64,000 nucleotides of DNA, taken from an uncultured Candidatus Rokubacteria bacterium. Its GTDB lineage: Bacteria > Methylomirabilota > Methylomirabilia > Rokubacteriales > CSP1-6. The stretch is taken from positions 1,568,001-1,632,000 of the forward strand of contig CAVYTA010000006.1 in the NCBI GenBank assembly GCA_963771355.1, read 5' to 3'. Each line of letters begins with the position of its first letter. The first letter of the stretch is position 1. Below are positions 8,601 to 64,000 of the stretch, piece after piece. Position numbers and translations under genes: made by a program. Below the pieces are notes generated by a model. That model worked only from the letters and a program-made list of their open reading frames with translations, ran no database searches and was not told the DNA's origin.

Positions 8601-8751
8601 GGCTGCCGCCCGCGGGCGTGAAGAGGAGGCCGCCCGCCACCGCGCCGGAATCCTCCACCAAGCGGCGGAGGGTCCGGGCGAATCCGGCCTCCGGCGATGC
8701 CGCCCGTCCCAGCGTGGCCAGGAGATCCGGGAACAGCCGCCCGATCTTCAT
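5635..8751 (-). CDS. cytoplasmic multi-GAF/PAS sensor histidine kinase
   Basis: Three GAF-like repeats, PAS, AHEINNPL H-box, DAGPGI, FDPFFTTK, GTGLGL. Confidence 0.88.
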
Positions 8752-8770
8752 CTCCCGGTCCTCACCGTCC

Positions 8771-46584: not shown

Positions 46585-49500
46585 TCACTCTTTGGTGGCG
46601 GTGCTGGGGCAGATCTGGTTGTACGCGCAGTATCGGCAGATCTGGTAGCCCGGCGTGGGATCGAACTGCCGCGCGCGAATGCCGGCGGCGGCCTCCTCGA
46701 TGGCGGTGCGCGCGTCGGCGAGATCCTCGGCGGTGGGCGTATGCCGACCGGCGAGGCCGGACTCGAGGAAGCGCAGCTCCACGCGTGCGGGGAGCTCGCC
46801 GGTGGCCTGCTGGTGGGCCAGCGCGTACATCTTGAGCTGAAGGCTCTCGCGCGCACGCTTGTCGGCGGCCTTCTGCTCGGTGACGTCGCTGGATTTGTAG
46901 TCCACGATCACCGTGCCCTCGGGGGTGTCGTCCACGCGATCAAACCGGCCCCGCACCCGCGTGGGGCCGAGGGCAAACATGAATTCACCTTCCACGCTCA
47001 GCGGCTTCTGGCCGGACGCCTCCTCCTCGTGATAGAAGCGCGTGAGCGCCTCCACGCCCGCCTGCTTGCGCTTCTCCTCGTGCTCGCGGGTGAGGAAGCC
47101 TTCGTTGCGCCAGGCATCGTCGAATGCCCGGAGGAAATCCTCGAGCGAAGTGTAGTTACCCGCCACGCGCCGACGCAGGTAGAGTTCCACTGCCTTGTGC
47201 AGCGCGCTGCCGTAGACGATGGCGTGGTGCTGCCGCAGCGGGATGCGCAGCAGGTGCACGTACTGGTACTTCAGCGGGCACGTGCGGTAGTCGTCCACCT
47301 GGTGGTGGCTCACCATCAGCTCGGCGTCGGCAGGCAGCGGCGCCTGCCCCGCGCTCTGATGCTCCGGCGGGGGCGCGTTGCGCTTCAGCTCCTCGATGGG
47401 CTGGGCCCTGAAAAGCCGCACCGCGTCCACCGACAGCTCGAGCGCCTCTACCACGAACTGGCTCACCTTCCACTTGCGCTTACCGCCGAGGTCCTCGGCG
47501 CCGGTGAGATAGAGCCGATCCTTGGCTCGGGTCATCGCCACGTAGAAGAGCCGGCGCTCTTCCTGAAGGTGGAAATCCCCGCCCGGCAAGGTGTCCTTGA
47601 TGAGGGCAGCCGGCATCTCGATGGGCTCCGAGCGCCGGATCGAAGGGAAACGGTTGTGCACACAGTTGACCACGAATACTACTGGCCACTCGAGCCCCTT
47701 CGCTTTGTGCACGGTAAGCACATGCACCGCGGGGATGTCCGAGTCGGGCTCCGCCAAGGGCGGATCGTCATCGGCATCGATCAACGCGTCGAGATGATTC
47801 ACGAACTCGCGCACGGTATCGTACTTCAGCACGCGTCCGGCATCCCGCACCCGGCTGAAGAACTTGCTGACGTTCTGGACCTCCTGCTCCAGCTCCGCGG
47901 GCGCCTTCGCGTAGCGGGTCATCAGCCCGGAGTCGGTGAGGAACTGATACAGGAGCTCGCCGGTGGGTGTCTCCCGCGCCAGCTCCATGTAGCGCTGAAG
48001 GTCCGCCACCAGCCGGCGCACCGCCGCCGCGCCCTCCTCGCTCAACGCCACCTCCGCCGGCGGATCCCGGAGCACGTCGAAGAGCCAGCGATGGCGCCGG
48101 TCGGCAAAGGTGGCGCACTTGGTGAGGTCCACGATCGGCACCTGATAGATGTCGGAGGACGCGAGGTAGTGCAGGCTCACCGATTCGTCAGGATGCGCCA
48201 CCGTCCGGAGGAACGAGATGAGCAGCCGGATTTCCGGCCGGCCGTAGAGCCCGGCATTCCCCGAGAAGGTCCAAGGCAGGTCGCGCGTATTGAGCGCCCG
48301 GAGAAAAGCGTCGGCGTCGTTGTTGGCCCGGACCAGGATGGCGAAGTCCTTGAGCGGCCGCCCCTGCGCGTGCTCCTCGACGATGAGGTCGGCCACCTGA
48401 TCCGCCTCGGAGGTGAGGGTGTCGAAAGCCAGGTAGCGCGGCGGCCGCGGGTTGGGGGCCGCCCCTGTCATGCTGATCAGCTTCTTGCTGATTCCGTACT
48501 TCACTTCGAGCCGGTCGGGGTTATTGAACTGGATGAGCCGGTACGCGCTGTCCAGCACTTCCTGCGGACACCGGTAGTTCTCGGTAAGCACGATGTCCCG
48601 GGCGTCCGGATAGCGCTCCTTGAACTGGAGCACGTTCGAGATCGCGGCTCCCCGCCACTTGTAGATCGACTGATCGTCGTCGGCGACCACGGCGAGATTC
48701 CGGTGCCGCTCGGCCAGCCGCTCCACGATCTCGTTCTGCGCGTAGTTGGTGTCCTGGAACTCGTCCACCAGAACGTACTTGAACCGCTCCTGGTACCGGC
48801 GCAGCACGTGTGGGCGGGTCCGGAAGAGCCGGAGCGTCTCCACGATCTGGTCGCCGAAGTCGATCTGGCCGAGGCGCGCCATCAAGGTCTGGTACTGGGC
48901 ATAGGTGCGCGCCAGCTCGAGATGCTCCTCCGCCTCCAGCCGGCCCTCGTCGTCGGCGGCGCTCGAGAGGAGAACTTCCGCCTGCGCGAGATAGGCGTCC
49001 GGACCCACGTCCTCGTCCTTGAGCCGGCTGAAGAGGCCAAGGAAGGCCTGGAGATGCCGGGTCGGATCACCCAGCGGACGGTAGTGCTTGAGCGGAAACT
49101 CGAAGAGGTGATCGCGCAGGAAGATCACTTGCTCCGCGCGGGTGAGCACCCGGAAGTCAGGCGTGAGCCCCAGCTCGAGCGCGTTCTCCTTGATGAGGCG
49201 ATCGCCGAAGGCGTGAAAAGTGGAGATCTGCACGTCGGCATAGCCGTAGGGGACGAGCGTGTCCACCCGCTCCTCCATCTCGGCGGCCGCCTTGTCGGTG
49301 AAGGTCAGGGCCAGGATCTCGGAGGGACGCGCGCGCCGCGCGGCGATGAGGTAGGCGATGCGCCGGGTGATGACCGTGGTCTTCCCGGTGCCGGCGCCGG
49401 CGATGATGAGCAGCGGCCCGGCCTCGTGGGTGACGGCGGCGCGCTGGGCCTCGTTGAGGCCTTCGAGGATCCGATCGATGCCGCGCGGTTCCCGCTCCAT
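46585..49500 (-). CDS. UvrD/REP-family helicase with C-terminal PD-(D/E)xK nuclease
   Basis: AGAGTGKT, VDEFQD, TVHKAKGLE, EERRLFYVAMTRA; GRFDRVD...VDYK; Cys set CPLKY...CRYC...C. Confidence 0.9.
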   Translation of the reverse strand: MEREPRGIDRILEGLNEAQRAAVTHEAGPLLIIAGAGTGKTTVITRRIAYLIAARRARPSEILALTFTDKAAAEMEERVDTLVPYGYADVQISTFHAFGDRLIKENALELGLTPDFRVLTRAEQVIFLRDHLFEFPLKHYRPLGDPTRHLQAFLGLFSRLKDEDVGPDAYLAQAEVLLSSAADDEGRLEAEEHLELARTYAQYQTLMARLGQIDFGDQIVETLRLFRTRPHVLRRYQERFKYVLVDEFQDTNYAQNEIVERLAERHRNLAVVADDDQSIYKWRGAAISNVLQFKERYPDARDIVLTENYRCPQEVLDSAYRLIQFNNPDRLEVKYGISKKLISMTGAAPNPRPPRYLAFDTLTSEADQVADLIVEEHAQGRPLKDFAILVRANNDADAFLRALNTRDLPWTFSGNAGLYGRPEIRLLISFLRTVAHPDESVSLHYLASSDIYQVPIVDLTKCATFADRRHRWLFDVLRDPPAEVALSEEGAAAVRRLVADLQRYMELARETPTGELLYQFLTDSGLMTRYAKAPAELEQEVQNVSKFFSRVRDAGRVLKYDTVREFVNHLDALIDADDDPPLAEPDSDIPAVHVLTVHKAKGLEWPVVFVVNCVHNRFPSIRRSEPIEMPAALIKDTLPGGDFHLQEERRLFYVAMTRAKDRLYLTGAEDLGGKRKWKVSQFVVEALELSVDAVRLFRAQPIEELKRNAPPPEHQSAGQAPLPADAELMVSHHQVDDYRTCPLKYQYVHLLRIPLRQHHAIVYGSALHKAVELYLRRRVAGNYTSLEDFLRAFDDAWRNEGFLTREHEEKRKQAGVEALTRFYHEEEASGQKPLSVEGEFMFALGPTRVRGRFDRVDDTPEGTVIVDYKSSDVTEQKAADKRARESLQLKMYALAHQQATGELPARVELRFLESGLAGRHTPTAEDLADARTAIEEAAAGIRARQFDPTPGYQICRYCAYNQICPSTATKE

Positions 49501-49556
49501 GTCGCTACCCGCGAATCATAACATTCGCGCGCAGGGCCGCGGCCACGGCGCGGCGG

Positions 49557-50522
49557 CTAGCGACGGATCTCCGTGCTGTCCGAGGCCATCAGCTCCTCCA
49601 GCTCGGCGCGGCCGACCAGCGCGATGTCGCCCCAGATCGTGCACTTCAGCGCGGCCAGCGCGGTGCCCGCATCCACCGCCGCCTGCGCGCCACCCCCGGT
49701 GAGCAGGGCCCAGAGAAAGCCCGCCGCGAACGCATCTCCGGCCCCCACACGGTCTACCACGGACACGGTATAGCGCTTGCGCGGCCGCCACACCGTGCCG
49801 CCCTCGAGCACGGCCGCGCCCGCCTCGCCGAGCGTGAGCGCGATGGTGGCCTGAGGCGCATGCGTCCGCAGACCTGCCAGCACAGCCTCGGGAGAGCCCG
49901 TGTGCTCGAACACCGTCTCCGCATCGTCCGCGCCGATGAAGAGGTAGCGTACGGCGGGCAGGATCTCCACGAGAAAGTCCCGCGCCTCCTTCGGCGTCCA
50001 CAGGCGGCCCCGATAGTTGATGTCGAGCGACAGGGACACGCCGGCCGCGGCCGCCTCGCGCACCGCACGCCGGATCACCTCGCGGAGATTCTCGCCGAGC
50101 GCGGGCGTGATCCCGGACAGATGCAGGAGACGGGTGCCCCGCAGCCGCGTCCAGTCCACGTCCTCCGGCTGGAGCCGGCTCATCGCCGAATCGCGCCGAT
50201 CGTACAGGATGCGGACCGGGCGCGGCGCCATGCCGTACTCCAGGAAGTACAGGCCCATGCGCGCCCCCTCGGGTCGGAGCACCCCCGCGCAGTCGACGCC
50301 ATGCCCCGTGAGCTCACGCAGCGCGCGGTCCGCCCAGGCATGCGCGGCCGGAAACGCGGAGATGAACGCGGTGCGCAAGCCGAGGCGCGCGCAGGCGGCG
50401 GCCACGTTGGCCTCGGAACCGCCGATCTGCACGTCCAGGGAGACGGCCTGCTCGAGTCGCTGCGGGGGCGGCGCGGCGAGCCGCAGCATCACCTCTCCCA
50501 GCGAGACGAGGTCGAAGCCCAT
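49557..50522 (-). CDS. kdgK: PfkB-family sugar kinase (2-keto-3-deoxygluconate kinase-like)
   Basis: GEVMLR, GGSEANVA, SGITPAL, DINYR, DRVGAGDAF. Confidence 0.78.
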   Translation of the reverse strand: MGFDLVSLGEVMLRLAAPPPQRLEQAVSLDVQIGGSEANVAAACARLGLRTAFISAFPAAHAWADRALRELTGHGVDCAGVLRPEGARMGLYFLEYGMAPRPVRILYDRRDSAMSRLQPEDVDWTRLRGTRLLHLSGITPALGENLREVIRRAVREAAAAGVSLSLDINYRGRLWTPKEARDFLVEILPAVRYLFIGADDAETVFEHTGSPEAVLAGLRTHAPQATIALTLGEAGAAVLEGGTVWRPRKRYTVSVVDRVGAGDAFAAGFLWALLTGGGAQAAVDAGTALAALKCTIWGDIALVGRAELEELMASDSTEIRR

Positions 50523-50531
50523 GCCGGGCGG

Positions 50532-51332
50532 TCAGGCGGTGGAGACGAGCCGGACGGTGAAGGAGCTGCCGAACATCAAGGAGGAGCGCACCGACTCGAC
50601 GTGGCGCGCCTGATCGAAGGTGACGCGAGCCGGCTGGCTCGAGCGCGCCCACGAGGAGAAGCGCGTGATGTCGATCTGCGCGCTCAGCAGGCCGGTGGCA
50701 GGATCCGACGTCACCCGGAAGCGAAGCGGCACGATCTCGGCGCGATAGCCGTTCGCCGAGACATCGTCCAGTCCTTCGTTCTCCGCCTTCGCCCGGCGCA
50801 CGATCGCGGTGCGGTAGTAGCCCTCGCCGTCCTGCTCGAGCCGATTCGCCGCAAAATTCAGCATGGCGGAGGCGATGTCGTCCACCGCCTGCCCCGCCGG
50901 GAGTTTGATCACATCGTCCACTTGGCGACGCCGGCCGAGAAACAAGGTGTAGCCTACGGAGTGGAACTCCACCGTGCCGTGCTCGTAGTTGTACTTCATC
51001 GTGCTCCAGCTCTCCCGACCGCGCACGGTACCGGTGCTCAGACTTTCGAGGGGCAGGAAGCGCCCGGCGCGAATGATCCCGCTCGCCTCCGTTCGCAGCG
51101 TGACCCCCGTGCCCTCGCCCGTGAGCACCACGCGATAACGGCTCGCCCCGTAGTCGATGTCCTCCGTCATGGTGCCGGACACGTGATAGGTCAGGAGGTC
51201 GAAGAGCACCCCGACGTCGGCCTGGTAGGAAAAGGTTTTCCTGCTCGGTAATCCCGCCCCGGCGACACGGGGCAAGAGAAGGAAGGCCAGAGGCAAACCC
51301 AGGAAGTGGCGTCGCGATAGAATCGGGGCCAT
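50532..51332 (-). CDS. exported hypothetical protein with Tat signal
   Basis: SRRHFL twin-arginine motif + hydrophobic stretch; beta-rich mature region. Confidence 0.65.
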   Translation of the reverse strand: MAPILSRRHFLGLPLAFLLLPRVAGAGLPSRKTFSYQADVGVLFDLLTYHVSGTMTEDIDYGASRYRVVLTGEGTGVTLRTEASGIIRAGRFLPLESLSTGTVRGRESWSTMKYNYEHGTVEFHSVGYTLFLGRRRQVDDVIKLPAGQAVDDIASAMLNFAANRLEQDGEGYYRTAIVRRAKAENEGLDDVSANGYRAEIVPLRFRVTSDPATGLLSAQIDITRFSSWARSSQPARVTFDQARHVESVRSSLMFGSSFTVRLVSTA

Positions 51333-51451
51333 GGATACGTTGATTGTACCCGACGCGGGAGGCGGAGGAAACTTGGTTTCCCTCCAGTTTCTTGCTATGG
51401 TTCCGATTACCTCGCTTTAACTTTCAGTGGTTTAGGGGGCAGACCGTCTCC

Positions 51452-52696
51452 ATGAGACATGGACGGCGCGTAGTCATCACGGGCATCGGCGTCGTTGCCC
51501 CCAATGGCATCGGTAAGCAGGCCTACTGGGACAGCCTCATCGCGGGCCGGTCCGGTGTGGACTGGATTACCGAGTTCAACACTGACCCCTATCCTTGCAA
51601 GGTCGCCGCCAAGGTCAAGAACTTCGATCCGGGGGCGTTCATCAGAACGAAGCAAGTTCGCCATATGGGAAGGTTCAGTCAATTCGCGGTTGCAGCCGCC
51701 AGGATGGCTCTAGATGATTCCCAGCTTGCGTTAACTCCGTCAGTGACAAGCCGGGCGGCCGTCTGCTTTGGAACATCTGGTGGGGCCCCAATCTTTGAGG
51801 AGGCTGTGATTAACTTTCACACGGGGGGCTTGCAAGCGGTTGATCCTTGGACCGCTCTGGAATACCCGCCTCATGCGCCGGCATCTTACGTCTCGATCGA
51901 ACTCGGTATCACTGGCCGGACTCTCTCCATCGCGTCGAATTGCTGCACGGGACTTGATGCCATTCAGTCAGCGACCACAGAGATCAGATCAGGACGTACG
52001 AGCGTTGTACTGGCAGGAAGCGCAGAAGCTCCGATCTCTCCCGCAATTTTTGCCACATTCTCCGCGCTCGGAGCATTGAGCAAGCGGAGTGATGACCCCA
52101 CTAAAGCTTCGCGCCCCTATGACCTCTTGAGAGATGGCCTCGTCATTGGTGAAGGTGCCGCAGCTTTCGTTCTCGAAGAAATAGAGCACGCAAGAGATCG
52201 TGGCGCGAGAATTTTTGCTGAGATAAAAGGCGCAAGCGGTGCGAGCGAAGCGATCGATATGCGTAAGGGGGACCTGTCCGGAAGAGTAATGGCGAGGGCA
52301 CTATCAGGCGCGATCCAGGATTCTGGACTCAAGGCCACCGACATCGACTATGTAAACGCCCATGGCAGTTCGCTCCCAGATTTTGATGTTTGTGATTCGA
52401 ACGCCTTCAAACAGGCGCTCTCCGATCACGCGTACAGAATTCCGATCTCGTCGATAAAATCCATGATCGGCCAACCCTTTGCTGCCGCTGGGTCTCTTCA
52501 GGCGGCCGCTGCATGTCTTTCTCTGGAGCATCAGCGCGTACCGCCAACTATCAATCAAGAGTTCCCCGACCCCCGATGCGATCTTGACTATGTTCCAAAC
52601 GTATCTCGTGTAGCACGAATCAGGAACATCTTGGTGAATGGCCATGGTTTCGGTGGAGGGTGTACTGCCATAGTAGTCGGACGAACTGACGAATGA
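51452..52696 (+). CDS. beta-ketoacyl synthase (FabF/KS-alpha-like) with variant active site
   Basis: RVVITGIG, SNCCTGLDA, SRPYD..RDG...GEGA, YVNAHGSS, SSIKSMIGQ, GFGG. Confidence 0.85.
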   Translation: MRHGRRVVITGIGVVAPNGIGKQAYWDSLIAGRSGVDWITEFNTDPYPCKVAAKVKNFDPGAFIRTKQVRHMGRFSQFAVAAARMALDDSQLALTPSVTSRAAVCFGTSGGAPIFEEAVINFHTGGLQAVDPWTALEYPPHAPASYVSIELGITGRTLSIASNCCTGLDAIQSATTEIRSGRTSVVLAGSAEAPISPAIFATFSALGALSKRSDDPTKASRPYDLLRDGLVIGEGAAAFVLEEIEHARDRGARIFAEIKGASGASEAIDMRKGDLSGRVMARALSGAIQDSGLKATDIDYVNAHGSSLPDFDVCDSNAFKQALSDHAYRIPISSIKSMIGQPFAAAGSLQAAAACLSLEHQRVPPTINQEFPDPRCDLDYVPNVSRVARIRNILVNGHGFGGGCTAIVVGRTDE

Positions 52697-52709
52697 GGAT
52701 CTTGAAGCT

Positions 52710-55199
52710 GTGGTTCTGAGTACCCGACTCCTTGGAGTCATCGTACTCTCATCCGCACTTGCGAGTCTTGGTCTGCTTGTCTTCCTCAACAATACACGCG
52801 CACAAGTTAACCGCCACTTCGCTCTCTCCGTCCTCAGTATTGTTGGCTGGATCGTAAGCATCACCATTGCACTGTCCCTGGAAGATCTGCATAAGGCAGT
52901 GGCTTTTGGGCGGTTAGCTTTTGCATTCGCGGGCAGCATTCCCTTCACACTCCTCCTAGTCATCCATGCTTTTCCAGTCCCCCAAGTAGTGTCTGCTAGG
53001 CGAACGCTCATTATTCCCGGTCTGCTTTGTGCTGCTTTTACCTTGATCTCACTGACGCCACTGGTGGTCGTCGGAGCGCAGCGAACCGCCCAGAAGACAA
53101 ATTTTATTTACGGTCCTCTGCACCCTCTCTTTTCGTTTTATGCCGCAGCGAGTCTCGGCTTTGCGCTATACCTGCTCTGGCGCAAACTACGAATGGCCTC
53201 CGGCCTTCGAAAACTCCAGCTGCGCTATTTGCTGCTCGGCATACTCCTTGGCGGTGCTGGGGCAATCACGACAAATGTTGTGATCCCCCTCGTATGGAAG
53301 ACGTCACAGTACAGCGTCCTCGGCCCATACTTCACCTTGCTACTGGTCTCATTCTCTGCCCACGCAATCATTCGTCATCGTCTGATGGACATTCGTCTCG
53401 TGGTCCGGCGGGGCTCCGTCTACCTGATGGCTGTTGCAGGTGCCGGAGCCGTTTTTATTGCACTCATCGGCACCATCGCCGCCCTTACCGCCACCAGAAC
53501 CCAAGATGTTCCGATTGCAATTCAGGTCGCACTAGCACTAGGGCTGGCCCTCGCCTTTCAGCCACTCAAGCAATGGATTCAGAATGGCTTCGATCGCTAC
53601 CTCTACCGAGAGTCGTACGACTATCGAACCATCATCCGTGAAGCGAGCCGTACAATTGCCTCTCTTCTCGATTTGAAGTCGCTCGTGGACTATCTCTCCG
53701 ATACAGTAAGCGACTCTCTCAGGCCGGACTATGTAGCCGTGTTCGTTCGAGAGCCCTCGCAGAGCTCATTCTCTCTGGTGGCATTCAAGACCACTCTGGA
53801 TCTCGAGCGCCCGGCTCTTCCAGCTTCGCTCGCTATGGCATCTGCGCTCCCTTTCTTTCTCGAAAGACATCGTCGCGGGCTCCTTCGTGATGATCTTGGA
53901 ACCGCCGTGGTCGGGCATGACGCTGAAACCGCGATCGAACATCTCAACAAGGTTGGCGCCGAACTGGCGATCCCCTTCATGTCAGAAAGAACCCTACTAG
54001 GGCTCCTTCTTATGGGACCCAAGCTTTCTGGCGACGCCTATTTTTCTGACGATCTCGAACTGCTCTCCACGCTCTCGAATCAGGCTGCTATCGCGATGCA
54101 GAATGCACAGCTTTATCGCCAGGTGCTTCTCGCCAACGAATACATCGAGAACATTCTGGGCACGATGGAAAACGGCGTCGTAGCAATTGACTCACATCGC
54201 GCAATTACATTGTGCAATAAGGCCGCTGAGCGGATGACTGGGATTGCAGCCGCATCACTGCGAAACCAGGGTGGCAGACAGCTTCCGGACGCGCTTTGGA
54301 GTCCTCTTGAAGCAACACTGAGTGACGGCCATGCGCGGACGCAACTGGAATCTGCTCTCATTGACGATGCTGGACGCGCAGTTCCGGTGGTCTGCGCCAC
54401 TTCTCCACTTAGAGATAAGCTCGGAACAATTCTCGGGGCCGTGATCGTATTCAGTGATCTCAGCAGACTAAAAGACCTGGAACGGGAAAAGCGCCGCGGA
54501 GAACGACTGGCCGCGTTCGGAGCATTGGCCTCAGGTATAGCGCACGAAATCAAGAATCCGCTCGTAGCGATCCGTACTTTTGCGGAACTTCTGCCGGAAC
54601 GATTTACTGACGAAGAGTTCCGACAAGACTTCTCCGTCATAGTTTTGAAGGAGATCGAGCGGATTGACCAGCTAGTTGGAAGGCTCAGGGGGCTGGCCGT
54701 CCCGTCTCATACCGCATTCCGAAGCGTGGATACTATCGAGCCACTTGAGGAGACGCTGGCGCTTCTGCGAGCCCAGTTCCTTCAGAAGCGAATCAATCTG
54801 ACGCGTGCATACACGGCATCCAATACTCGAATCTCAGGAGATTCAGATCAGTTGAAACAACTCTTTCTCAATATCCTTATCAATGCTGTCGAGGCGATGG
54901 AGCATGATGGGCAGTTGACTATTCGCCTAGCGGACCTAGCGACGCACGATGGCCAGAGTTTGCTCATCGAGGTGTCTGATTCAGGTCCCGGAATCCCCGA
55001 AAACATAATTGGAAAAATCTTCGAACCCTTCGTGACGACGAAGCCCAAAGGATCCGGGCTTGGTTTGGCAATTTGCCGGGGCATTACTGACGCACACAAG
55101 GGAACTATTCGCGCGACAAACGTCGATCTTGGAAACGGGACTACTATCTTGATTGAGTTCCCTGTCGCAACCGACCTACAGCCTGCCACTGTCCAGTAG
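52710..55199 (+). CDS. membrane HisKA_7TM-like-GAF-PAS sensor histidine kinase (copy 1)
   Basis: Multi-TM N-terminus, AHAIIRHRLMDI, GPKLSGDAY GAF, AHEIKNPL, NILINA, DSGPGI, GSGLGL. Confidence 0.88.
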   Translation: MVLSTRLLGVIVLSSALASLGLLVFLNNTRAQVNRHFALSVLSIVGWIVSITIALSLEDLHKAVAFGRLAFAFAGSIPFTLLLVIHAFPVPQVVSARRTLIIPGLLCAAFTLISLTPLVVVGAQRTAQKTNFIYGPLHPLFSFYAAASLGFALYLLWRKLRMASGLRKLQLRYLLLGILLGGAGAITTNVVIPLVWKTSQYSVLGPYFTLLLVSFSAHAIIRHRLMDIRLVVRRGSVYLMAVAGAGAVFIALIGTIAALTATRTQDVPIAIQVALALGLALAFQPLKQWIQNGFDRYLYRESYDYRTIIREASRTIASLLDLKSLVDYLSDTVSDSLRPDYVAVFVREPSQSSFSLVAFKTTLDLERPALPASLAMASALPFFLERHRRGLLRDDLGTAVVGHDAETAIEHLNKVGAELAIPFMSERTLLGLLLMGPKLSGDAYFSDDLELLSTLSNQAAIAMQNAQLYRQVLLANEYIENILGTMENGVVAIDSHRAITLCNKAAERMTGIAAASLRNQGGRQLPDALWSPLEATLSDGHARTQLESALIDDAGRAVPVVCATSPLRDKLGTILGAVIVFSDLSRLKDLEREKRRGERLAAFGALASGIAHEIKNPLVAIRTFAELLPERFTDEEFRQDFSVIVLKEIERIDQLVGRLRGLAVPSHTAFRSVDTIEPLEETLALLRAQFLQKRINLTRAYTASNTRISGDSDQLKQLFLNILINAVEAMEHDGQLTIRLADLATHDGQSLLIEVSDSGPGIPENIIGKIFEPFVTTKPKGSGLGLAICRGITDAHKGTIRATNVDLGNGTTILIEFPVATDLQPATVQ

Positions 55200-55362
55200 A
55201 TCGACTACTACTTCCGACGTCCTCGGCTTTTCGCCTTTGCTCTAGTACTGCGCTTGAGTCAATATCGACGTCCAGTGTATGAAAATGTCCACGTCTTGTA
55301 GCAAGTCTCGTGTTGGTTAACGTTGATAGGCGTTAGAAGACTGAATCGGGCTGAGCGAGGCC

Positions 55363-57822
55363 ATGCAAATTAGCTCAAGTGCCATACCGCTTCTCGCCAC
55401 TGCATTACTGAATCTGGCAATCGCAATCTACGTTTACGGGCGGAATCCTCGGAGCACCCCCCACCTAGCCCTATCCGCAATGGCGTTCCTAGGCGGCATG
55501 TGGGCTGCCGGCGTCGCGTTCGGCAGTTACTCGAGTCCCGTCTCGCTTGCGTCTGTACGTTTCACTTTGGCAGTGGCGAGCCTTGCTCCTCTTGCATCTC
55601 TCGTTCTCGCAGAAACTTTCCCTGCAGGAGGCGGTCTCAGAGCGAGCCTCCCTTTGCGGCTGTATGCCCCGCCGTCACTGCTGTTCTTCGTACTGGCCTT
55701 TTCTTCTCTCCTTGTGATTTCAGTGCAAGAAGGTCAGTCCGGCGTCAGGATTGAATATGGACTACTTCATCCGGCCTATGGAGTTTATATCCTCTCGGGT
55801 TTTGGTAGCGCAATCTGGATTCTAACCAAGAAGCATCGAAAAGCGTCCGGAGCACTGCGACTTCAGAGCAAGTACCTTTTGATTGCACTGTCGATCCCTA
55901 TAATTTTGGGAACCGTGACGAACCTACTTGTTCCGTTAGTCTTTGGAACGTCGGCGCTAAGCAAATACGGTCCCTTCTTTTCTCTCGTCATGATCATACT
56001 GATCGCCCACGCCATCATCCGCCACCGCTTGATGGACATTCGCGTCAAGGTGCGGCGTGGTGCGGTATATCTCGCCGCGGTGCTGGTGGCGGGCCTCGTC
56101 CTCCTGTGCCTCCTCATGGCATCCAACGCGTTCTTCCACGATTCAAACCGGGCGCCGGTGCGCGAGATTCTTCTCGCGCTGCTGGTGGCGGTGCTCTTTG
56201 CGCCCCTGAAGGGGCAGATCCAGCGCGCATTCGATCGCTATCTGTACCGCGAGCCCTACGACTATCAGCGGACGATCCGGGAGACGAGCCGCGCGCTGAG
56301 CGCCACCATCGACCTACCCGCGCTGCTAGGCCACTTCGCGCGCACCGTCGGGGCCACGCTCAGACCTGAGGGGCTCGCTATCTACCTCCTCGACGTGGAG
56401 GAGGACCGCTTCGAGCGCGCGCACCTGCACGGACACGGCACGTTCCCCAAGCATGCGCCGCGCACGGTGTCGCTCCTGGTGACGCTCGATCGGGAGCGTT
56501 GCCTGCTCTTTCGTGACGAGGTCGGCCGACAGTCAGACGGTGGCGATGCCGTGACGACGCTGGGAGAGTTCGATCATCTGGGGACGGAGGTGCTCGTGCC
56601 CCTCATTGCGGACGATCACGTCATCGGATTTCTCGCCGTCGGGCCCAAGCGCTCAGGCGACCCCTTCTTCAGCGACGACGCCGATCTGCTCGCCACGCTG
56701 GCCAACCAGTCCGCGGTGGCGGTGCGCAATGCCCAGATTCACCAGCAGGTTGTCCAGGTCAACGAGCACATTCAGCGCATCCTGGCCACGATCGAGAGCG
56801 GCGTCGCCGCGGTCGGGGCCAAGGGCCGGATCACGCTCTTCAATCGAGCCGCCGAGACCTTGGCCGGAATCTCTGCCGAGGAACTGCAAGGGAAGCCGGT
56901 CGCGCACTTGCCAGGTCCGCTGGCACGGCTGCTCGAGGCGGCGGCCGGCGGCGGCTCCAGCTCCCAGGTCGAGATTAGCCTCCCCGACGCGTCCGGGCAG
57001 ATGGTCCCCTTGATGTGCTCCACCTCGCCCCTCGTCGGCCCGCGCGGTATCCCCCTGGGGGCGGTGGCCGTTTTCAGCGACCTCTCGCGACTGAAAGAGC
57101 TGGAGCAGGAGAAGCGTCGGGCCGAGCGCCTGGCCTCGCTGGAGGCCATTGCCTCGGGCATGGTGCATGAGATCCGGAACCCCCTCGTGTCCCTCAAGGC
57201 CTTTACCCAGCTCCTGCCGACCCGGTTCGACGACCCCGAATTCCGGGCTAGGCTGGTCCGCATGGCCGACCGGCAGATCTCACGCATCGACGAGCTCCTG
57301 GGACGCTTCCGCACCCTGGCTTCGGCTCCGGCCCAACCGATGGGGCTGGTCGATCTCCTTGACCCGTTACGGTCTGCGTTGGAGTTACTGCTGCCCGAGC
57401 GGGAGGCGCGAGGAGTGCAGTTGCGACGGGTGGGAATTGAATCCGTGCCCAAGATCGTGGGGAATGATTCTCTATTGGAACAGCTTTTCCATAACTTATG
57501 CCTCAATGCCATCGAAGCCATGACCGCCGGGGGAGAGCTTACGGTGCGGGTTGCTGACCTGTGCGAAGCGGGCGGGAGCACCCTGCTTGTGGAGATCTCG
57601 GACACCGGATGTGGCATCCCCGACCACCTCCTCGACAATATCTTCAATCCGTTCGTCACCACCAAGTCGAGAGGTTCAGGCCTCGGGCTGGCCATCTGCA
57701 GCAGCGTCGCCGACGCACATCGGGCAATCCTGAGCGCTCGCAACCACACCGGCCGACCCGGCTGCACGTTCGCCATCGAATTTCCCGTCCCCGACAGGCG
57801 CCCCCCCAAACTTCACATCTGA
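55363..57822 (+). CDS. membrane HisKA_7TM-like-GAF-PAS sensor histidine kinase (copy 2)
   Basis: Same architecture: AHAIIRHRLMDI, GPKRSGDPF, VHEIRNPL, DTGCGI, GSGLGL. Confidence 0.88.
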   Translation: MQISSSAIPLLATALLNLAIAIYVYGRNPRSTPHLALSAMAFLGGMWAAGVAFGSYSSPVSLASVRFTLAVASLAPLASLVLAETFPAGGGLRASLPLRLYAPPSLLFFVLAFSSLLVISVQEGQSGVRIEYGLLHPAYGVYILSGFGSAIWILTKKHRKASGALRLQSKYLLIALSIPIILGTVTNLLVPLVFGTSALSKYGPFFSLVMIILIAHAIIRHRLMDIRVKVRRGAVYLAAVLVAGLVLLCLLMASNAFFHDSNRAPVREILLALLVAVLFAPLKGQIQRAFDRYLYREPYDYQRTIRETSRALSATIDLPALLGHFARTVGATLRPEGLAIYLLDVEEDRFERAHLHGHGTFPKHAPRTVSLLVTLDRERCLLFRDEVGRQSDGGDAVTTLGEFDHLGTEVLVPLIADDHVIGFLAVGPKRSGDPFFSDDADLLATLANQSAVAVRNAQIHQQVVQVNEHIQRILATIESGVAAVGAKGRITLFNRAAETLAGISAEELQGKPVAHLPGPLARLLEAAAGGGSSSQVEISLPDASGQMVPLMCSTSPLVGPRGIPLGAVAVFSDLSRLKELEQEKRRAERLASLEAIASGMVHEIRNPLVSLKAFTQLLPTRFDDPEFRARLVRMADRQISRIDELLGRFRTLASAPAQPMGLVDLLDPLRSALELLLPEREARGVQLRRVGIESVPKIVGNDSLLEQLFHNLCLNAIEAMTAGGELTVRVADLCEAGGSTLLVEISDTGCGIPDHLLDNIFNPFVTTKSRGSGLGLAICSSVADAHRAILSARNHTGRPGCTFAIEFPVPDRRPPKLHI

Positions 57823-57913
57823 AAACGGCCTTGGTCGTCTCGGCCGACGAGGTCCTGCGAAGTCGTCTCCGTCGCAGTCTGGATGGCCGTGCGGTGTTCC
57901 CGGTCGGCTCGGA
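57087..57913 (+). repeat. diverged direct repeat, copy A (kinase 3' end + start of the 59080 gene)
   Basis: Aligns by eye with 58509-59174, e.g. aatgattc.ctattggaacagcttttcca.aacttatgc and ggccgtgcggtgttc.cggtcggctc. Confidence 0.85.
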
Positions 57914-58224
57914 TCAACACGGAGTTTCCGTCTACGGTCCCTTGACCCAGCGCGAGGGTCGTGGTCCGGATGGGGGTGCACTTTGCCCCCGCAGTGCCCG
58001 CCCCACAGTGCATCGGGTGTAAGTGCCCGCGGCATGGAGCGTTCGCTTCACCGGATTCGCTTCCCAGGGGGCCGCTGCCCCGTCGGCGGTGCAGCGGCCT
58101 CCTGGCGGCGGCCAGCGATGCGGCTACATTTTCATGGTTCCCACACACTTGGGCGGAGGGCGCCCGCGGCATGTGCCTGGCGCGAATCCTGCCTACTCAG
58201 ACCGACCGGCGGAATACTGTCCCC

Positions 58225-58500
58225 ATGAAAACTCCGCTCGACCTCGCTAGCCTAAAAAGCCCATATCGGTCGACGCGTTGTCTCCGCCGATGTCGTCCGC
58301 GCCGCGCCGGCGAGCCTCCTGCGCCTGACCTTCGGGCGGTCCGGGCCCGAGCTCGCGCCGGGGGCGACGTGCTGCCACCGGGCTGGCACACCCTCTACTT
58401 CCCTCTACCGCGCTGCCGCCCAGCGCGCTCCATTCTGATGGCAGTCCGCGTGATGCGAGAGTGGTCCCGCCCATGCCCCTGCCGCGGCACATGTTCACCA
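58225..58500 (+). pseudogene. frameshifted N-terminal fragment of a MaoC/HTD2-like (mesaconyl-C4-CoA hydratase-type) gene
   Basis: Stitched frames give MKTPLDL...HIGRR...GDVLPPGWHTLYF...DGSP...PPMPLPRHMF. Confidence 0.6.
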
Positions 58501-58508
58501 GCGAGCGA

Positions 58509-59060
58509 GCGACTGAGGGAGCTGGAGCCGGAGAAACGTCGGGTCGAACGTCTGGCCTCGTTGGGACGCTTCCGCACCTTGACCCCGGCTCCGGCCCAAC
58601 GGATGGGGCTGGTCGATCGCCTTGACCCCCTCCAGTCGACGTTGGGCTTACTGCTACCAGAGCCGGAGTTATGCTGCGTGCCGTTACGCCGTATCGGGAT
58701 CGGGGCCGTGCTCGAGATGGTGGGTAATGATTCACTATTGGAACAGCTTTTCCACAACTTATGCTTAAATGCCATAGAGCCATGACCGCCGGAGTAGAAC
58801 TCACGGTGCGGGTTGCCAATCGGTGCGAGACAGGCGGGAGCACCCTGCTCGTGCAGATCTCGGACACCGGACGTGGCATCCCCGACGGCGTCCTCGATAA
58901 CCTCTTCAATCCCTTCGTGACGACCAAGCCGAGAGGGTCGAGCTTCGGCCTTGCCATCTCCAGAAGCGTCGCTGACGCGCATCGGGCCACCCTGAATGCC
59001 CGAAACCACGTCGGCCGACCCGGCTGCCCATCGCAATCGAATTTCCCGTGACTGATAGGC
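58509..59060 (+). pseudogene. decayed copy of the kinase C-terminus (start of repeat copy B, which extends to ~59174)
   Basis: H-box region deleted (joins ERLASL to GRFRTL); 1-nt frameshift at gccatagagccatg; GSGLGL changed to GSSFGL. Confidence 0.8.
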
Positions 59061-59079
59061 GCTCTTCCAAAATTCACGT

Positions 59080-61134
59080 ATGAGAACGGCCCTGGTGGTC
59101 TCGGCAGACGAGGCCTTGCGAGCTCGTCTCCGCCATAGTCTCGACGGCCGTGCGGTGTTCGCGGTCGGCTCCGACGAGGAGGCCCTGCGGACGCTCCGGT
59201 TCACCGCCGTGGACCTGATCGTCAAGGAGGCGACACCCACCCGCGAAGTCCCCGTCTTCATTGAGCGGGCCCGGCAGATTTGCCCCACGGCGGTGGTGGT
59301 CTGTGTGCTTACTGCCGACTCGGCGCCCGAAGACGATCCCGCTGTCGAACAGGCCGACTTCGTCCTCCTCCACCCCTTCTCGGCCAGCCACTTCCAGAGC
59401 GTGCTTCGCCAGGCCGAGGAGAAGCTCCGGCTGCTCCAGGAGGTTTCGGCGCTGCGCTCAACGTCGCGACGGCTGCCCGAGGCGCCCACTGGCCCTGTTC
59501 CCGGGGACTCCGGGCCCGCGCTGGACCTGCCGTCCGACGTGCTGACGCGGATGGTGAAGGAGTTTGCCAAGGCCCTGTCGGCGGGGTTCGACATCTCGCG
59601 CGTGCTCGATCTCTTTCTCGACGCAGTGGCCGAGCTGGCGCGGCCCACGCGCAGCGCTATCCTGGTGGCGGACCAGGTCGGCCGACTATACCGGATCACG
59701 GCCTTCCGGGGCCTGGCGCCCCACGTGGTCGAGTCGGTGGTCCTGTCAGCCGACGCGGGCCTGCCCCTCTGGCTCGCCGGGGAAGGTCGCCTCATCCACA
59801 TCGAGGAAGCGCAGGCGCGCGCCTCGGACCCCACCGCGCGCGAGATCGCGCGCGAGATGGCGGTGCTCCAGGCGACGATCGCGATGCCGCTGATGTCCCA
59901 CGGCGAGCTGGTCGCGGTGCTCACCCTTGGCCAGCGGGTGACCGGCGGCGGCTACAGCCGGCGCGAGACCGAGATCATCTACAACCTGGCCAGCCACCTC
60001 GCCACCGCGATCCGGGACATCCGAGTTCACCACCTCCTCGAGTACCAGAAGCAGTTCACCGAGCGGATCCTCGCGCACATGTCCAACGGCGTCATCACCA
60101 TCGGGCCGGACGAGCGCGTGGTGATCATCAACCGTCGGGCGGAGGAGATCCTCGGGATGGCGGCCCGCGACGCGCTCAATCGGGACCTGCGTGTCCTTCC
60201 CTCGCCGCTGGGCGATCTGCTCTTCGAGACGCTCACGCGCGGCCGCGCCGTTCATCGCGAGGAGGTGCAGCTCGCCCTGCGCAGCCTGCCCCTCGAGGTG
60301 TCCACCTACCCGGTGATGGGCGACAGCGCCACCACCCTGGGAGCGGTGCTGGTCTTCGAGGACCTCACCGCCCAGCGCCAGGCCTCCCGCGAGCGCCGCG
60401 AGGCGGAGCAGCTCGAGCTGCTCACCCGCGTGGTGGCGCGGATCGCGGATGAGATCAAGAACCCGCTCGTCTCTATCCGCACCTTCATGGAGCTCCTCGA
60501 GGAGCGCTACGACGACGCGGGTTTCCGCAGCCATTTCGCCTCCGTGGTGGGACGCGACGTGCGGCGACTCGTGCAGATGTTCGAGAAGCTGGCGGCCCTG
60601 GTAAACGAGGGTGACTACAAGCTGGAAGTGCTGGACGTGCGGCTCGCGGTCGAGGAGTGCCTGCTGGAGCTGGGCGCCCAGCCCGTGCCCGCGGCGGGGG
60701 CGGAGGCGCGGCTCCTCACCTTCATCGACGAATCCACGCAGAAGCACGTCTCCGCCACCTATTCCTTCGAGGGCCGGACCTTCCTGGTACGGGGCGATCG
60801 CGCCATGCTCAAGAAGGCGATCGCCTACCTCGTCTGGTATCTCCTGCGCAAGACGTCCGGCCAGGACGCCAAGCTCTCCGTCTCCGTATCCCGTCTCGAC
60901 AAGGAGGACCGTGTGCGGATCATCGTCGCCTCGCGCACCGCCGATGTCCGGGCGGACGAGCTGCACCGCATCTTCGATCCCATCCAGGTCGTCCAGGAGA
61001 ACCTCATCGACGTGGGGCCCTGCGTGAGCCAGCGCATCATCGAGGCGCAGGGCGGACGGCTGGAAGCCAAGCAGGGACGCGCCGAGGTGGCCTTCACCGC
61101 GGTGCTGCCGGGCGTCCCCGGGAGCATGGCATGA
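59080..61134 (+). CDS. pseudo-receiver-GAF-PAS pseudo-histidine kinase
   Basis: ADEIKNPL in place of AHEIKNPL; N, G1 and G2 boxes degenerate; intact 684-aa ORF. Confidence 0.8.
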   Translation: MRTALVVSADEALRARLRHSLDGRAVFAVGSDEEALRTLRFTAVDLIVKEATPTREVPVFIERARQICPTAVVVCVLTADSAPEDDPAVEQADFVLLHPFSASHFQSVLRQAEEKLRLLQEVSALRSTSRRLPEAPTGPVPGDSGPALDLPSDVLTRMVKEFAKALSAGFDISRVLDLFLDAVAELARPTRSAILVADQVGRLYRITAFRGLAPHVVESVVLSADAGLPLWLAGEGRLIHIEEAQARASDPTAREIAREMAVLQATIAMPLMSHGELVAVLTLGQRVTGGGYSRRETEIIYNLASHLATAIRDIRVHHLLEYQKQFTERILAHMSNGVITIGPDERVVIINRRAEEILGMAARDALNRDLRVLPSPLGDLLFETLTRGRAVHREEVQLALRSLPLEVSTYPVMGDSATTLGAVLVFEDLTAQRQASRERREAEQLELLTRVVARIADEIKNPLVSIRTFMELLEERYDDAGFRSHFASVVGRDVRRLVQMFEKLAALVNEGDYKLEVLDVRLAVEECLLELGAQPVPAAGAEARLLTFIDESTQKHVSATYSFEGRTFLVRGDRAMLKKAIAYLVWYLLRKTSGQDAKLSVSVSRLDKEDRVRIIVASRTADVRADELHRIFDPIQVVQENLIDVGPCVSQRIIEAQGGRLEAKQGRAEVAFTAVLPGVPGSMA

Positions 61135-63434
61135 CGGACCGCGCGCGCATCCTCGTGGTGGACGACGAGATGGGGCCGCGGGAATCGCTCCGCATGATCC
61201 TCAAGCCCCGGCACGACATCGCCACCGCCGACAGCGGCGAGGCCGCCCTCCGTACGCTGAAGAGCTTCCACCCGGACCTGATCTTCATGGACATCAAGAT
61301 GCCGCAGATGGACGGCATCGAGCTCCTCCGCCGCATCAAGAGCATCGATCCCAGCATCGAGGTCGTGATGATCACGGCCTACGCGTCCCTGGAGACGGTC
61401 AAGAACGCATTGACCCATGGGGCCTTCGAGTACTTGATCAAGCCCTTCAGCCGCCAGGACCTCGAGGAGACGGTGCGGCGCGCGCTGGCCCGGCGACAGA
61501 CCGAGGTGGGCACGCGCAATCAGCTCACCGCACTCGTGGACGAGATGCGCGCCCTCTCCGGCAAGACCCGCGACCACGAGGAAGAGGCCCGTCGCGAGCA
61601 GGCGGAACAGTCGCTCCGCGTGACCCAGCTGTCCATCCTGCGGGAAATCTCGCGCGGCTTGCTCGGCCAGCTCGACCTCACCCAGCTCGTGGCCACCATC
61701 ACCGAGCAGCTCCGCTCGGCGCTGGGCTACGACGAGGTGCGCATCCACCTGGGCTCAGCACCGGCGGAGACTCCCGCGGGCCCGTCCACGGTGGTGTGTC
61801 CCATCCGCGACGACGGCAGCACGCTGGGCTACCTCGCCGCCGCCAACCAGGGCACGCGCGCCATCGATCCGCGCGAACGCGAGCTGCTGGAGATGCTGTC
61901 GGACTACCTCGCAGTAGCCATCCGCAACTCGCGGCTCTACGGCCAGGTGGCCGACACCAAGCGATCGCTCGAGCAGCTCATCCAGTCCGCGGGTGACGGC
62001 ATCATCTCGCTGGACCGCAACGACAACATCGTGGGCTGGAATCCGGCCGCGGAGCGTATCTTCACGCTGCCCAGCCGAGATGCGATCGGCCGCCCCATCA
62101 CCGAGCTGCTGCCGCGGGACCAGTACAAGAGCGCGCGCAACGCGCTGGCCACCACCGCGCCCGTCCGGGTGTTCGAGGTCGTCTCGCGGCGCGAGGACGG
62201 CAGCGGGCTCAGCCTCGCGGTGACCCTGTCCGCCCTCACCGACCGCGAGGGGCAGCTCGAGGGCGTGCTCGCCATCGTGCACGACACCACCGCCCAGCGG
62301 GAGCTCGAGGCGCAGATGCTCCAATCGGAAAAGCTCACTGCGCTGGGACAGATGGCGGGCGGCATCGCGCATGACTTCAACAACCTGCTCCAGGCCATCC
62401 TCGGCTACGCCCAGCTCATGGGGAAGAATCCCGCCAACGTGGACGTGGTCCGGCGCGGGCTGGACGTCATCGAGGCCGCCGCCACCGGCGGCGCGGAGAC
62501 GGTGCGGCGCATCCAGAAGTTCGCGCGGCTCCGGCCCGACGAGCCGTTCGTGTCACTGGACCTCAACAGCGTGGTGAACGACGCGGTGGCGATCACCCAG
62601 CCGCGCTGGGAGGAACGCGCGGCCAAGGGCGGCCTGCCCCTGCGCATGGAGCTGAGCCTGCCCGCGATTCCCGTCGTGATGGGGCGCCCCTCGGAGCTGA
62701 ACGAGGTCATCACCAATCTCATCCTCAACGCCATCGACGCGATGCCGGAGGGCGGCGTGCTGAGCATCCGGACCAGCGTCGACCGCGGCGACTCCGTCGT
62801 CCTCACCGTGGCCGACACCGGGACCGGCATGCCGGAGGCGGTGCGCAAGCGCGTGTTCGACCCCTTCTTCACCACCAAGGGCGAGCTGGGCACCGGCCTC
62901 GGACTGTCGGTCTCCTATTCCATCGTGAAGCGCCATAACGGCGAGATGCGGGTGGACAGCCAGGTGGGACGCGGCACCGCCTTCACCATCGTGCTCCCGG
63001 CGGCGATGGCGTTCTCGGCGGATGCGCCCGCGGAGCTCGACACCCTGGGCAGCCGGCGCGGCCGCATCCTGCTGGTGGACAACGACGCCCAGGTGCTCGC
63101 CATCCTCACCGAGATGCTGCGCGAGGGGAACCACGAGGTGGTGCCGGTGGCCAGCGGCCCCGCCGCCATGGACGCCTTCCGGCCGGGGGCCTTCGACGTG
63201 ATCCTCACCAATCTCGGCATGGTGGGCATGACAGGCTGGGAGGTCGCGCAGCGCATCCGCGCCCGCGACCGCAACGTGCCGGTGGTCTTCATCACGGGAT
63301 GGGGACTACACGAGGAGGACCAGGAGCGTTGCCGGCACCTGGGAATCCACCACGTGCTCTTCAAGCCGGTCGGCCCCGGCGAGCTGCACCGGGCCATTCA
63401 GAGCACGCTCGCCGAGCACGCCGCCCGCGCCTAG
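61131..63434 (+). CDS. hybrid histidine kinase REC-GAF-PAS-HisKA-HATPase-REC
   Basis: VVDDE/FMDIKMP/IKPF; AHDFNNLL, NLILNA, DTGTGM, GTGLGL; C-terminal REC with LTNLGM. Confidence 0.88.
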   Translation: MTDRARILVVDDEMGPRESLRMILKPRHDIATADSGEAALRTLKSFHPDLIFMDIKMPQMDGIELLRRIKSIDPSIEVVMITAYASLETVKNALTHGAFEYLIKPFSRQDLEETVRRALARRQTEVGTRNQLTALVDEMRALSGKTRDHEEEARREQAEQSLRVTQLSILREISRGLLGQLDLTQLVATITEQLRSALGYDEVRIHLGSAPAETPAGPSTVVCPIRDDGSTLGYLAAANQGTRAIDPRERELLEMLSDYLAVAIRNSRLYGQVADTKRSLEQLIQSAGDGIISLDRNDNIVGWNPAAERIFTLPSRDAIGRPITELLPRDQYKSARNALATTAPVRVFEVVSRREDGSGLSLAVTLSALTDREGQLEGVLAIVHDTTAQRELEAQMLQSEKLTALGQMAGGIAHDFNNLLQAILGYAQLMGKNPANVDVVRRGLDVIEAAATGGAETVRRIQKFARLRPDEPFVSLDLNSVVNDAVAITQPRWEERAAKGGLPLRMELSLPAIPVVMGRPSELNEVITNLILNAIDAMPEGGVLSIRTSVDRGDSVVLTVADTGTGMPEAVRKRVFDPFFTTKGELGTGLGLSVSYSIVKRHNGEMRVDSQVGRGTAFTIVLPAAMAFSADAPAELDTLGSRRGRILLVDNDAQVLAILTEMLREGNHEVVPVASGPAAMDAFRPGAFDVILTNLGMVGMTGWEVAQRIRARDRNVPVVFITGWGLHEEDQERCRHLGIHHVLFKPVGPGELHRAIQSTLAEHAARA

Positions 63435-63475
63435 CGGCCGGGCGCCGGAGGTTGTCGGACGGACGGTCGTCTTTC

Positions 63476-64000
63476 CTACGCCTTCCGGTCCTTCACGAGC
63501 TTGGAGAGCTTGCAGAAGGCGCAGATCTCGCCCGTGGTCACCTGCCCGCACACCCCGCACTCCTGGAGCTCTGGCCGCGCGGTCGGCTCGAAGACCGCGC
63601 GCGCCTTGTCGAGGAATCCAAACAGGAAGTTGTGCTTGGCGCCCGGCGAGGCTTCCTCGAGGCGGTTGAGGATGTCCTTGTGGGCGAGCGAGGTGGCCCC
63701 CTTCGAGAAGGGACATTCCTCCACGATGTAGTCGATCCCGCGCAGGAAGGCATAGGCCGCCGTCTCCCGCTCGGACAGGCGGTAGAGCGGCTTCACCCGC
63801 CGCGCCAGCTTGGGATGAGTGGAGGCCAGCATAGGGGACTGGCGCGGGAGCGCGTCCATCTGCCAGTGGAGGACCGAGCCGAACAGTGTGGCCGCCTCGT
63901 CGTCGAGGTTGTGCCCGGTGGCGACCACGGCGTAGCCATGCTCGAGGGCGGCGCGATTCAGGAGGTAGCGCTTGCTGAGCCCGCAGGCCGAGCAGGTTGG
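63476..64000 (-). CDS. ttuA: TtuA/Ncs6-type tRNA 2-thiolation protein (5' part outside window)
   Basis: CSACGLSKRY, ATGHNLDDE, EECPF, C-terminal CGVC...CAFC. Confidence 0.8.
   Translation of the reverse strand, partial: PTCSACGLSKRYLLNRAALEHGYAVVATGHNLDDEAATLFGSVLHWQMDALPRQSPMLASTHPKLARRVKPLYRLSERETAAYAFLRGIDYIVEECPFSKGATSLAHKDILNRLEEASPGAKHNFLFGFLDKARAVFEPTARPELQECGVCGQVTTGEICAFCKLSKLVKDRKA

Follow-up and report, generated by a model that had tools for sequence, protein, structure and literature searches.

Why should a stand-alone ketosynthase be encoded at the head of an operon whose other genes specify two receptor kinases, a pseudokinase and a hybrid kinase? The question is raised by a 64,000-nucleotide stretch of DNA (the window, meaning the whole stretch that was analysed) from an uncultured Candidatus Rokubacteria bacterium (assembly GCA_963771355.1, contig CAVYTA010000006.1, positions 1,568,001 to 1,632,000), the forward strand of which carries, in this order, the ketosynthase (KS, 51452-52696), receptor kinases 1 and 2 (HK1, 52710-55199; HK2, 55363-57822), the pseudokinase (59080-61134) and the hybrid kinase (61131-63434). 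A first-pass annotation of this DNA had described five co-oriented open reading frames (ORFs), a 13-bp gap, a His→Asp pseudokinase and an ATGA overlap, and the ORF list and a domain scan bear this out: HK1 begins 13 bp after the KS stop codon, and the start of the hybrid kinase overlaps the end of the pseudokinase. The source names attached to close homologues likewise point to a host in Methylomirabilota/Rokubacteria. Comparison of related loci at the sequence level indicates that KS and the membrane sensor of HK1 (sensor 1) are inherited and swapped jointly, as distinct types, among close relatives. The reading favoured here, with moderate confidence, is that KS would be a lipid-signal synthase and HK1 its cognate receptor, the two occurring in matched, exchanged types, with relay through D54 and H414 of the hybrid kinase, the pseudokinase serving as an adaptor and HK2 providing a second input.

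Conservation and joint exchange of the ketosynthase and sensor 1

A functional link between KS and receptor would be doubtful if their adjacency were not conserved in other genomes, as the first-pass annotation had pointed out; in the relatives it is conserved. Among 70 receptor-selected loci, drawn from the best 80 of 206 matches, KS lies directly before the first receptor in 54, with 13 loci cut off and three exceptions, and this arrangement persists throughout an order and outside it, in differing chromosomal contexts. In a control set of 80 KS-selected metagenome loci, many of them on short contigs, all four KS proteins that carry the family motif have a receptor encoded directly downstream; among the other 76 loci, three have a receptor directly downstream and three more have one nearby. 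Within the phylum, 151 genomes gave profile matches to KS in 53 and to the pseudokinase in 91, all 53 falling within the 91; these genomes include kin that are not independent of each other, and two of the 53 hold a sister form of KS with a Cys-His-His triad.

The evidence for joint inheritance comes from the 40 loci in which all five parts are near full length, 25 of which have a low-GC KS. Across these 25, sensor 1 identity tracks KS identity (rho 0.79; partial rho 0.77 given the pseudokinase) and does not track the pseudokinase (partial rho 0.11). In trees of the same 25 loci with two outgroup loci, KS and sensor 1 have 14 of 19 supported splits in common and one in conflict, while KS and the pseudokinase have six in common and 12 in conflict; the kinase half of the last receptor and the pseudokinase, in turn, have 16 splits in common and one in conflict. 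Four KS types, set on the KS tree and represented by the window (type I), L028 (II), L046 (III) and L031 (IV), require three changes on the sensor-1 tree versus nine on the pseudokinase tree, and approximately unbiased (AU) tests reject trees of KS and of sensor 1 in which host-sister loci stay grouped (p = 9e-56, 4e-6, 3e-22 and 9e-40). Between the window and the same-genus locus L028, the pseudokinase is 95% identical, KS 54% and sensor 1 38%. L028 DNA aligns to the window up to position 51708, within KS, and again from 55961, within the HK2 sensor, with flanks of 84-89% identity and an unaligned block between these two intragenic breakpoints, delimiting an exchanged low-GC block (51708-55961). 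At two further loci (L064 and L026), KS and sensor 1 have switched type, and the cytoplasmic half of the same receptor groups with host kin (support 94 and 97).

The base composition of the locus carries a corresponding boundary. From KS through the end of the HK2 sensor (51452-56034) the GC content is 0.542, lower than in any of the 1,196 bins of 4.6 kb into which the genome was divided (median 0.70). GC content at third codon positions (GC3) is 0.56 in KS, HK1 and sensor 2, 0.81 in the remainder of HK2 and 0.90-0.94 in the downstream genes, HK2 consisting of a low-GC sensor fused to a cytoplasmic part of host GC. A GC3 step within the last receptor gene recurs in 24 of the 40 loci, and because of this recurrence a single recent horizontal transfer was rejected as the sole cause of the low GC.

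Losses of the module are harder to establish from genome data. Co-loss inferred from genome absences was rejected, the contigs of G004 (100% complete) and of other genomes ending inside the cassette. Twenty of the 38 pseudokinase-positive, KS-negative genomes were examined, and these comprise 18 contig-end cuts, one KS in two pieces and one locus both rearranged and cut; the only clean joint loss is in G038, where KS, receptor and pseudokinase are all absent at a contiguous locus. The cassette is probably under-counted in metagenome-assembled genomes. At L161, L168, L169, L171 and L175 the contig ends at or near the border between the sensor and the GAF domain of the last receptor, a pattern that strain-level variation or low GC would produce by interrupting assembly there. 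Frameshifts in cassette genes (L166, L154, L155, L157, L158 and L021) could be sequencing errors, UvrD of L021 being frameshifted too, or signal-null alleles. Two further loci differ in layout: at L105, KS (6408-7637) and a receptor (7701-10097) lie among low-GC3, mobile-looking genes, where no pseudokinase was seen and no tRNA was found, and at L081, KS and one receptor stand outside the usual context, with the pseudokinase and hybrid kinase genes inverted upstream.

The ketosynthase, the receptors and the putative relay proteins

The KS ORF opens at a TTG (51344) and stops at 52696; the ATG at 51452 is the likely true start, backed by an AGGGGG upstream and by an identical 414-aa database protein. 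KS is a stand-alone ketosynthase and a candidate signal synthase. Its model (pLDDT 94.8) has the thiolase fold of KAS II enzymes, with a TM-score of 0.98 to Bacillus subtilis FabF (4ls8), and the family matches Pfam PF00109/PF02801 in 38 of 38 members. It is about 38-42% identical to FabF and to the KS-alpha of type II polyketide synthases (PKS), the Cys, first His and Lys being kept, and scores 409.3 bits against the TIGR03150 equivalog cut-off of 493.75, which places it below the FabF threshold, while narrowly passing the broader NF005589 subfamily (388.2 versus 387). Grouping of KS with the housekeeping FabF, which would have undermined the first-pass proposal, was not found: in the tree, KS forms a clade (28 rows, support 100/99) separate from three housekeeping FabFs and five ‘KS-A’ paralogues, and the housekeeping FabF of the window genome is encoded elsewhere, in a plsX-fabF-rnc operon. 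The ratio of nonsynonymous to synonymous divergence (dN/dS) is 0.04-0.12 in six of eight KS pairs, those with measurable dS, the other two being saturated, so KS is under purifying selection and is maintained.

Elongating ketosynthases have a Cys-His-His triad and require F400 for condensation, as reviewed in the available text of PMC9006962. The window KS instead has C164-H304-Q341, accompanied by K336 and Q350. Among 59 family members, C164, H304, D312, K336 and Q350 are invariant, whereas position 341, that of the second catalytic His, is Gln in 46, His in 10, Asn in two and Ile in one; an OleA-like Cys-His-Asn triad is not characteristic of the family, with Asn in only these two of 59. F400 is kept in 16 of the 59, and replacement of the threonines found in the HGTST motif of FabF is almost universal. 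From these residues we infer that acylation is kept and that the malonyl step is remodelled. The chain-length factor (CLF) and acyl carrier protein (ACP) that would mark a type II PKS are not found beside KS in the window.

HK1 and HK2 share a HisKA_7TM (PF16927)-GAF-PAS-HisKA-HATPase architecture, with all domains above the Pfam cut-off. Their PF16927 scores of 35.5 and 43.8 bits exceed the gathering score of 28.6, placing both sensors in the family. The H-boxes are intact (H612 in HK1, H602 in HK2), and N, G1 and G2 boxes are also present in both. The AlphaFold model of the HK1 sensor and GAF domain (pLDDT 81) shows a seven-helix bundle resembling G protein-coupled receptors (GPCRs) plus two further helices, and sensor residues 3-223 align structurally with the transmembrane domains of class C GPCRs (Z 16.8, rmsd 3.2, 216 residues, 7% identity), at a score to be read against the Z of about 13-14 that helical bundles reach by chance. 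The model thus suggests that the sensor shares a GPCR-like 7TM fold, and fold alone shows no function; PF16927 is presumably a member of a Pfam GPCR clan. For the HK1 sensor and GAF region, a PDB sequence search gave no significant match, and a profile search and Foldseek gave GAF matches only. Tandem 7TM sensors also occur, about 15 representatives (P0145, P0148-P0150, P0160 and others) having two sensor-profile matches, the second from about residue 270.

The pseudokinase comprises a degenerate receiver-like N-terminus followed by Pfam GAF, PAS and HisKA domains, with no HATPase_c match. Its H-box reads ADEIKNP, with D457 in place of His (Asp in 46 of 48 homologues), and its ATP-binding boxes are degenerate, the N and G1 boxes being replaced. 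The hybrid kinase has a REC-GAF-PAS-HisKA-HATPase-REC architecture (two receiver matches in Pfam) and an intact H-box (H414). Its first receiver is canonical, with D54 in 31 of 31 homologues, and its C-terminal domain is a pseudo-receiver, with Asn (N694 in the window) replacing the phospho-Asp in 29 of 31. Given three intact H-boxes and D54 as the only canonical receiver residue, the operon amounts to three kinases and one phospho-acceptor.

In the proposed mechanism, KS likely draws an acyl chain from ordinary fatty-acid synthesis, C164 becoming acylated from acyl-ACP, and turns it into a small lipid that is set free as a signal. Remodelling on the side that handles malonyl groups, visible in Q341, Q350, the lost HGTST threonines and the variable F400, means that KS would not perform routine elongation but a non-standard step, either a head-to-head condensation or an acyl transfer. 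The signal is likely bound by the seven-helix sensor of HK1. Both HK1 and HK2 would feed phosphate to D54 of the hybrid kinase, HK2 carrying a second, lineage-linked input, and the pseudokinase would be an adaptor without catalytic function, comparable to DivL. H414 of the hybrid kinase would then hand the signal on to a response regulator whose gene lies outside the operon.

Competing readings and known systems

Several observations weigh against a synthase and receptor joined in this way. Receptors without a KS upstream occur at L094, where other genes interrupt, and at L100 and L111. The KS types and AU groups were named after the trees had been seen, and the locus pairs are not independent. 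In the two-receptor comparison (18 loci; three with short matches were left out), KS is tracked by the cytoplasmic half of receptor 1 as well (partial rho 0.79), so the congruence is due in part to physical linkage; the same half also tracks the host (0.51, versus 0.09 for its sensor). Sensor 2 does not track KS (partial rho -0.08) but the host (0.76). The tree co-variation that the first-pass annotation had proposed as a check thus holds for receptor 1 and fails for receptor 2, and its claim that both membrane kinases read the KS product is not supported, since the receptor 2 sensor follows the host lineage. Family f4 shows neither a GC step nor a sign of swapping, and its dS is even. The prevalence of Q341 (46 of 59) and the retention of F400 in only 16 of 59 fit a loss of elongation equally with new chemistry, and no output regulator was identified; the five proteins and the flanking ORFs scanned have no DNA-binding domain. 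Finally, the LuxN model is matched by neither window receptor and is matched weakly by only 7 of 24 and 5 of 23 of their homologues (E <= 1; 23 of 30 intended). These matches fall at positions 125-310, the reported ligand-site region, with a best E of about 2.4e-4, and are outnumbered among the homologues by matches to the PrsK (16 of 24) and LIC10906 (24 of 24) models. NF041945 (LuxN/AinR) has no match above cut-off in the genome, and HK1 and HK2 have no C-terminal receiver; LuxN membership was not established.

The first of the alternatives, judged unlikely, makes KS a retired enzyme that serves as a cytoplasmic co-sensor, binding or being acylated by acyl-ACP, contacting receptor 1 and reporting fatty-acid status, with co-variation reflecting a protein interface. 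Such a role would suit a protein with a degenerate malonyl side and an invariant C164, in an operon that already employs a pseudokinase and pseudo-receivers, and it would fit the correlation of KS with the PAS and kinase portions of receptor 1 (partial rho 0.78-0.82). However, the membrane sensor is the part that always travels with KS, and the single-receptor loci L027, L031, L087 and L110 have host-like GC3 in the cytoplasmic part. The invariance of H304, K336 and D312 and the retention of His341 in 10 of 59 members also speak against a co-sensor, as do the sister forms at L149 and L150, in which Cys-His-His is retained and tailoring enzymes precede the receptor.

Similarly unlikely is the possibility that KS makes a structural or protective lipid of the membrane or envelope, which the 7TM kinase monitors in the same cell as feedback rather than for signalling between cells. 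In its favour, the desaturase, ICMT/PEMT-type methyltransferase, short-chain dehydrogenase/reductase (SDR) and B12 radical-SAM neighbours of KS in relatives act on lipids, the operon has no exporter, and over the sensor and GAF domain the two receptors of the window are similar to PrsK, a protein of PEP-CTERM envelope systems (E 5.8e-5 and 4.9e-9). Against it, close kin both retain and exchange deeply diverged types, which strain-specific signalling predicts and simple homeostasis does not clearly explain. It is very improbable that KS and receptor are unrelated passengers of a recombination hot spot that co-vary by linkage only: the genes are adjacent and low in GC, with raised dS, and the congruence partly extends over the whole of receptor 1, but their order is conserved through different chromosomal contexts, the breakpoints lie inside receptor genes at the sensor/kinase border, the module was lost jointly in G038, and KS-7TM pairs recur on unrelated low-GC contigs.

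By analogy with described systems, the synthase-receptor module would work like LuxM-LuxN or phcBSRQ with agr-like specificity groups, while being a member of none of these. The luxM and luxN genes are adjacent. In Vibrio harveyi, their products are likewise a synthase of an acyl signal and a membrane kinase with multiple helices, LuxN having nine predicted helices and a ligand site between helices 4 and 7 (PMC5007282). By contrast, the candidate synthase here is a thiolase-fold KS in place of an acyl-homoserine lactone synthase, and the receptors have PAS domains and lack the C-terminal receiver of LuxN. The phcBSRQ operon of Ralstonia begins with an enzyme for a fatty-acid-derived signal, followed by a membrane kinase and by kinase/receiver proteins for which the available text of PMC8578825 gives no DNA-binding domain, the output regulator being encoded elsewhere. 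PhcB is a methyltransferase (PMC8578825), whereas the window operon contains none and is thus no Phc system; it differs further in having a second receptor, in its His→Asp pseudokinase and in the swappable types.

The likeness to agr and comQXP lies in the specificity groups, KS and sensor 1 co-diverging and being exchanged against a conserved kinase core. The comQXP groups of Bacillus follow the same agr-like pattern. In agrBDC of Staphylococcus, signal gene and N-terminal sensor co-diverge, the kinase C-terminus is conserved and the boundary is intragenic (PMC5007282). Those systems use peptide signals, whereas no peptide precursor was identified here, though no dedicated small-ORF search was made; there is no sequence evidence of homology. 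The use of primary-metabolism acyl donors by a stand-alone KS for a signal has a precedent in PpyS, for which a model based on OleA has a Cys-His-Asn triad plus a catalytic Glu, and whose signal is read by the LuxR-type PluR (PMC4578411). By contrast, the KS described here has a FabF fold and Cys-His-Gln and is paired with a membrane kinase; from FabF and KS-alpha it differs in its sub-threshold TIGR03150 score, its separate clade and the mostly Gln second His. No description of a KS-HisKA_7TM pair was found in the literature searched, which omitted most subscription papers and all supplements, and the available text of PMC5847659 and PMC6944256 merely lists HisKA_7TM and gives no ligand.

Flanking features, related modules and wider meaning

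The 1,257 bp between HK2 and the pseudokinase (57823-59079, forward strand) are a degenerate duplication comprising a dead pseudokinase start, a 635-bp spacer and a frameshifted HK2 3'-end remnant. This insert holds a second, frameshifted copy of the HK2 3' end and pseudokinase start (58562-59174 versus 57299-57913, 81% nucleotide identity), and its spacer (57927-58561), which is 76% identical to C6:2499259-2499817 of the same genome, resembles a fragment of some unrelated gene. It is absent from the close relatives L021-L024 and L028, in which HK2 and pseudokinase abut, and a remnant resembling it is also present in L132. An assembly artefact was rejected, the junctions being bridged by contigs from DNA runs of four studies (the left by three, the right by two), of which the best-matching run may be the source sample. 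One DNA run has a 23-bp tandem duplication at 55260, in the HK1-HK2 intergenic region, and five runs listed as RNA contain 0.06-0.19 or 0.26 of the words. Rfam gave no match in 49000-64000, and the sigma-70 promoter consensus was found zero times versus 2.1 expected. Divergently upstream of the operon lies the gene for a DUF3108-like protein with a twin-arginine-like N-terminus (50532-51332, reverse strand), a frequent neighbour that in another family adjoins the operon convergently downstream; its operon membership is uncertain because G038 retains it despite having lost the module.

The absence of ACP, CLF, reductase and DNA-binding domains, as first annotated, holds for the five proteins and the flanking ORFs scanned with Pfam, but relatives add enzymes, and the lipid-tailoring genes found beside KS there favour the signal-synthase reading. 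In family f4, a Cys-His-His KS and an ACP precede this KS, and both are kept in G038 without it. A KS and an ACP lie next to KS in L037/L039, and a low-GC desaturase gene lies beside it in L031. L149 encodes an SDR and an ICMT-type methyltransferase between a Cys-His-His KS and the receptor, together with a REC-HD output; in L150 an ICMT-type methyltransferase occupies the corresponding position. On further contigs, the genes for KS and 7TM proteins are accompanied by methyltransferase, ThiF, B12 radical-SAM or GH3 genes, and the outputs encoded there are of the sigma-54 or GGDEF kind.

A paralogous HisKA_7TM kinase is preceded by a GNAT gene in six scanned loci, usually with a methyltransferase, whereas the other HisKA_7TM paralogues scanned have no GNAT or methyltransferase neighbour. 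In L137 (5599-9383), L138-L141 and L143, genes of high GC for a SAM methyltransferase and a GNAT acetyltransferase stand directly before those for a HisKA_7TM-GAF kinase and a receiver-bearing kinase, and L146 has such a GNAT/HisKA_7TM module with two methyltransferases. This methyltransferase-GNAT-HisKA_7TM module, conserved in Rokubacteria, is a candidate second synthase-receptor system. L148 (5691-8814) holds a low-GC3 pair, a PRMT5-like methyltransferase match followed by a fusion of HisKA_7TM to an adenylate/guanylate cyclase. The window genome also has a three-KS cluster (L052, G000:C5:546197-550688), consisting of two KS genes and a CLF-like gene, with neighbours judged by eye to be glycosyltransferase- and halogenase-like.

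HisKA_7TM is a widespread sensor domain, and here it occurs with a single candidate enzyme and with natural matched and mismatched pairs, which therefore makes ligand discovery a direct experiment. Should KS prove to be a co-sensor, the recruitment of a ketosynthase as the partner of a kinase would be unusual too. A bolder form of the synthase-receptor reading, put forward tentatively and with somewhat less than even confidence, is that a FabF-fold Cys-His-Gln autoinducer synthase and a GPCR-fold kinase form a quorum pair of an abundant, uncultured soil lineage with at least four horizontally exchanged lipid ‘dialects’, which would be the first small-lipid counterpart of the agr specificity groups and would give HisKA_7TM a ligand class. 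If the synthase-receptor reading is right, the system would represent a new synthase class for bacterial cell-to-cell signalling, with strain-specific lipid dialects in Rokubacteria, and would link a GPCR-like bacterial fold to lipid ligands.

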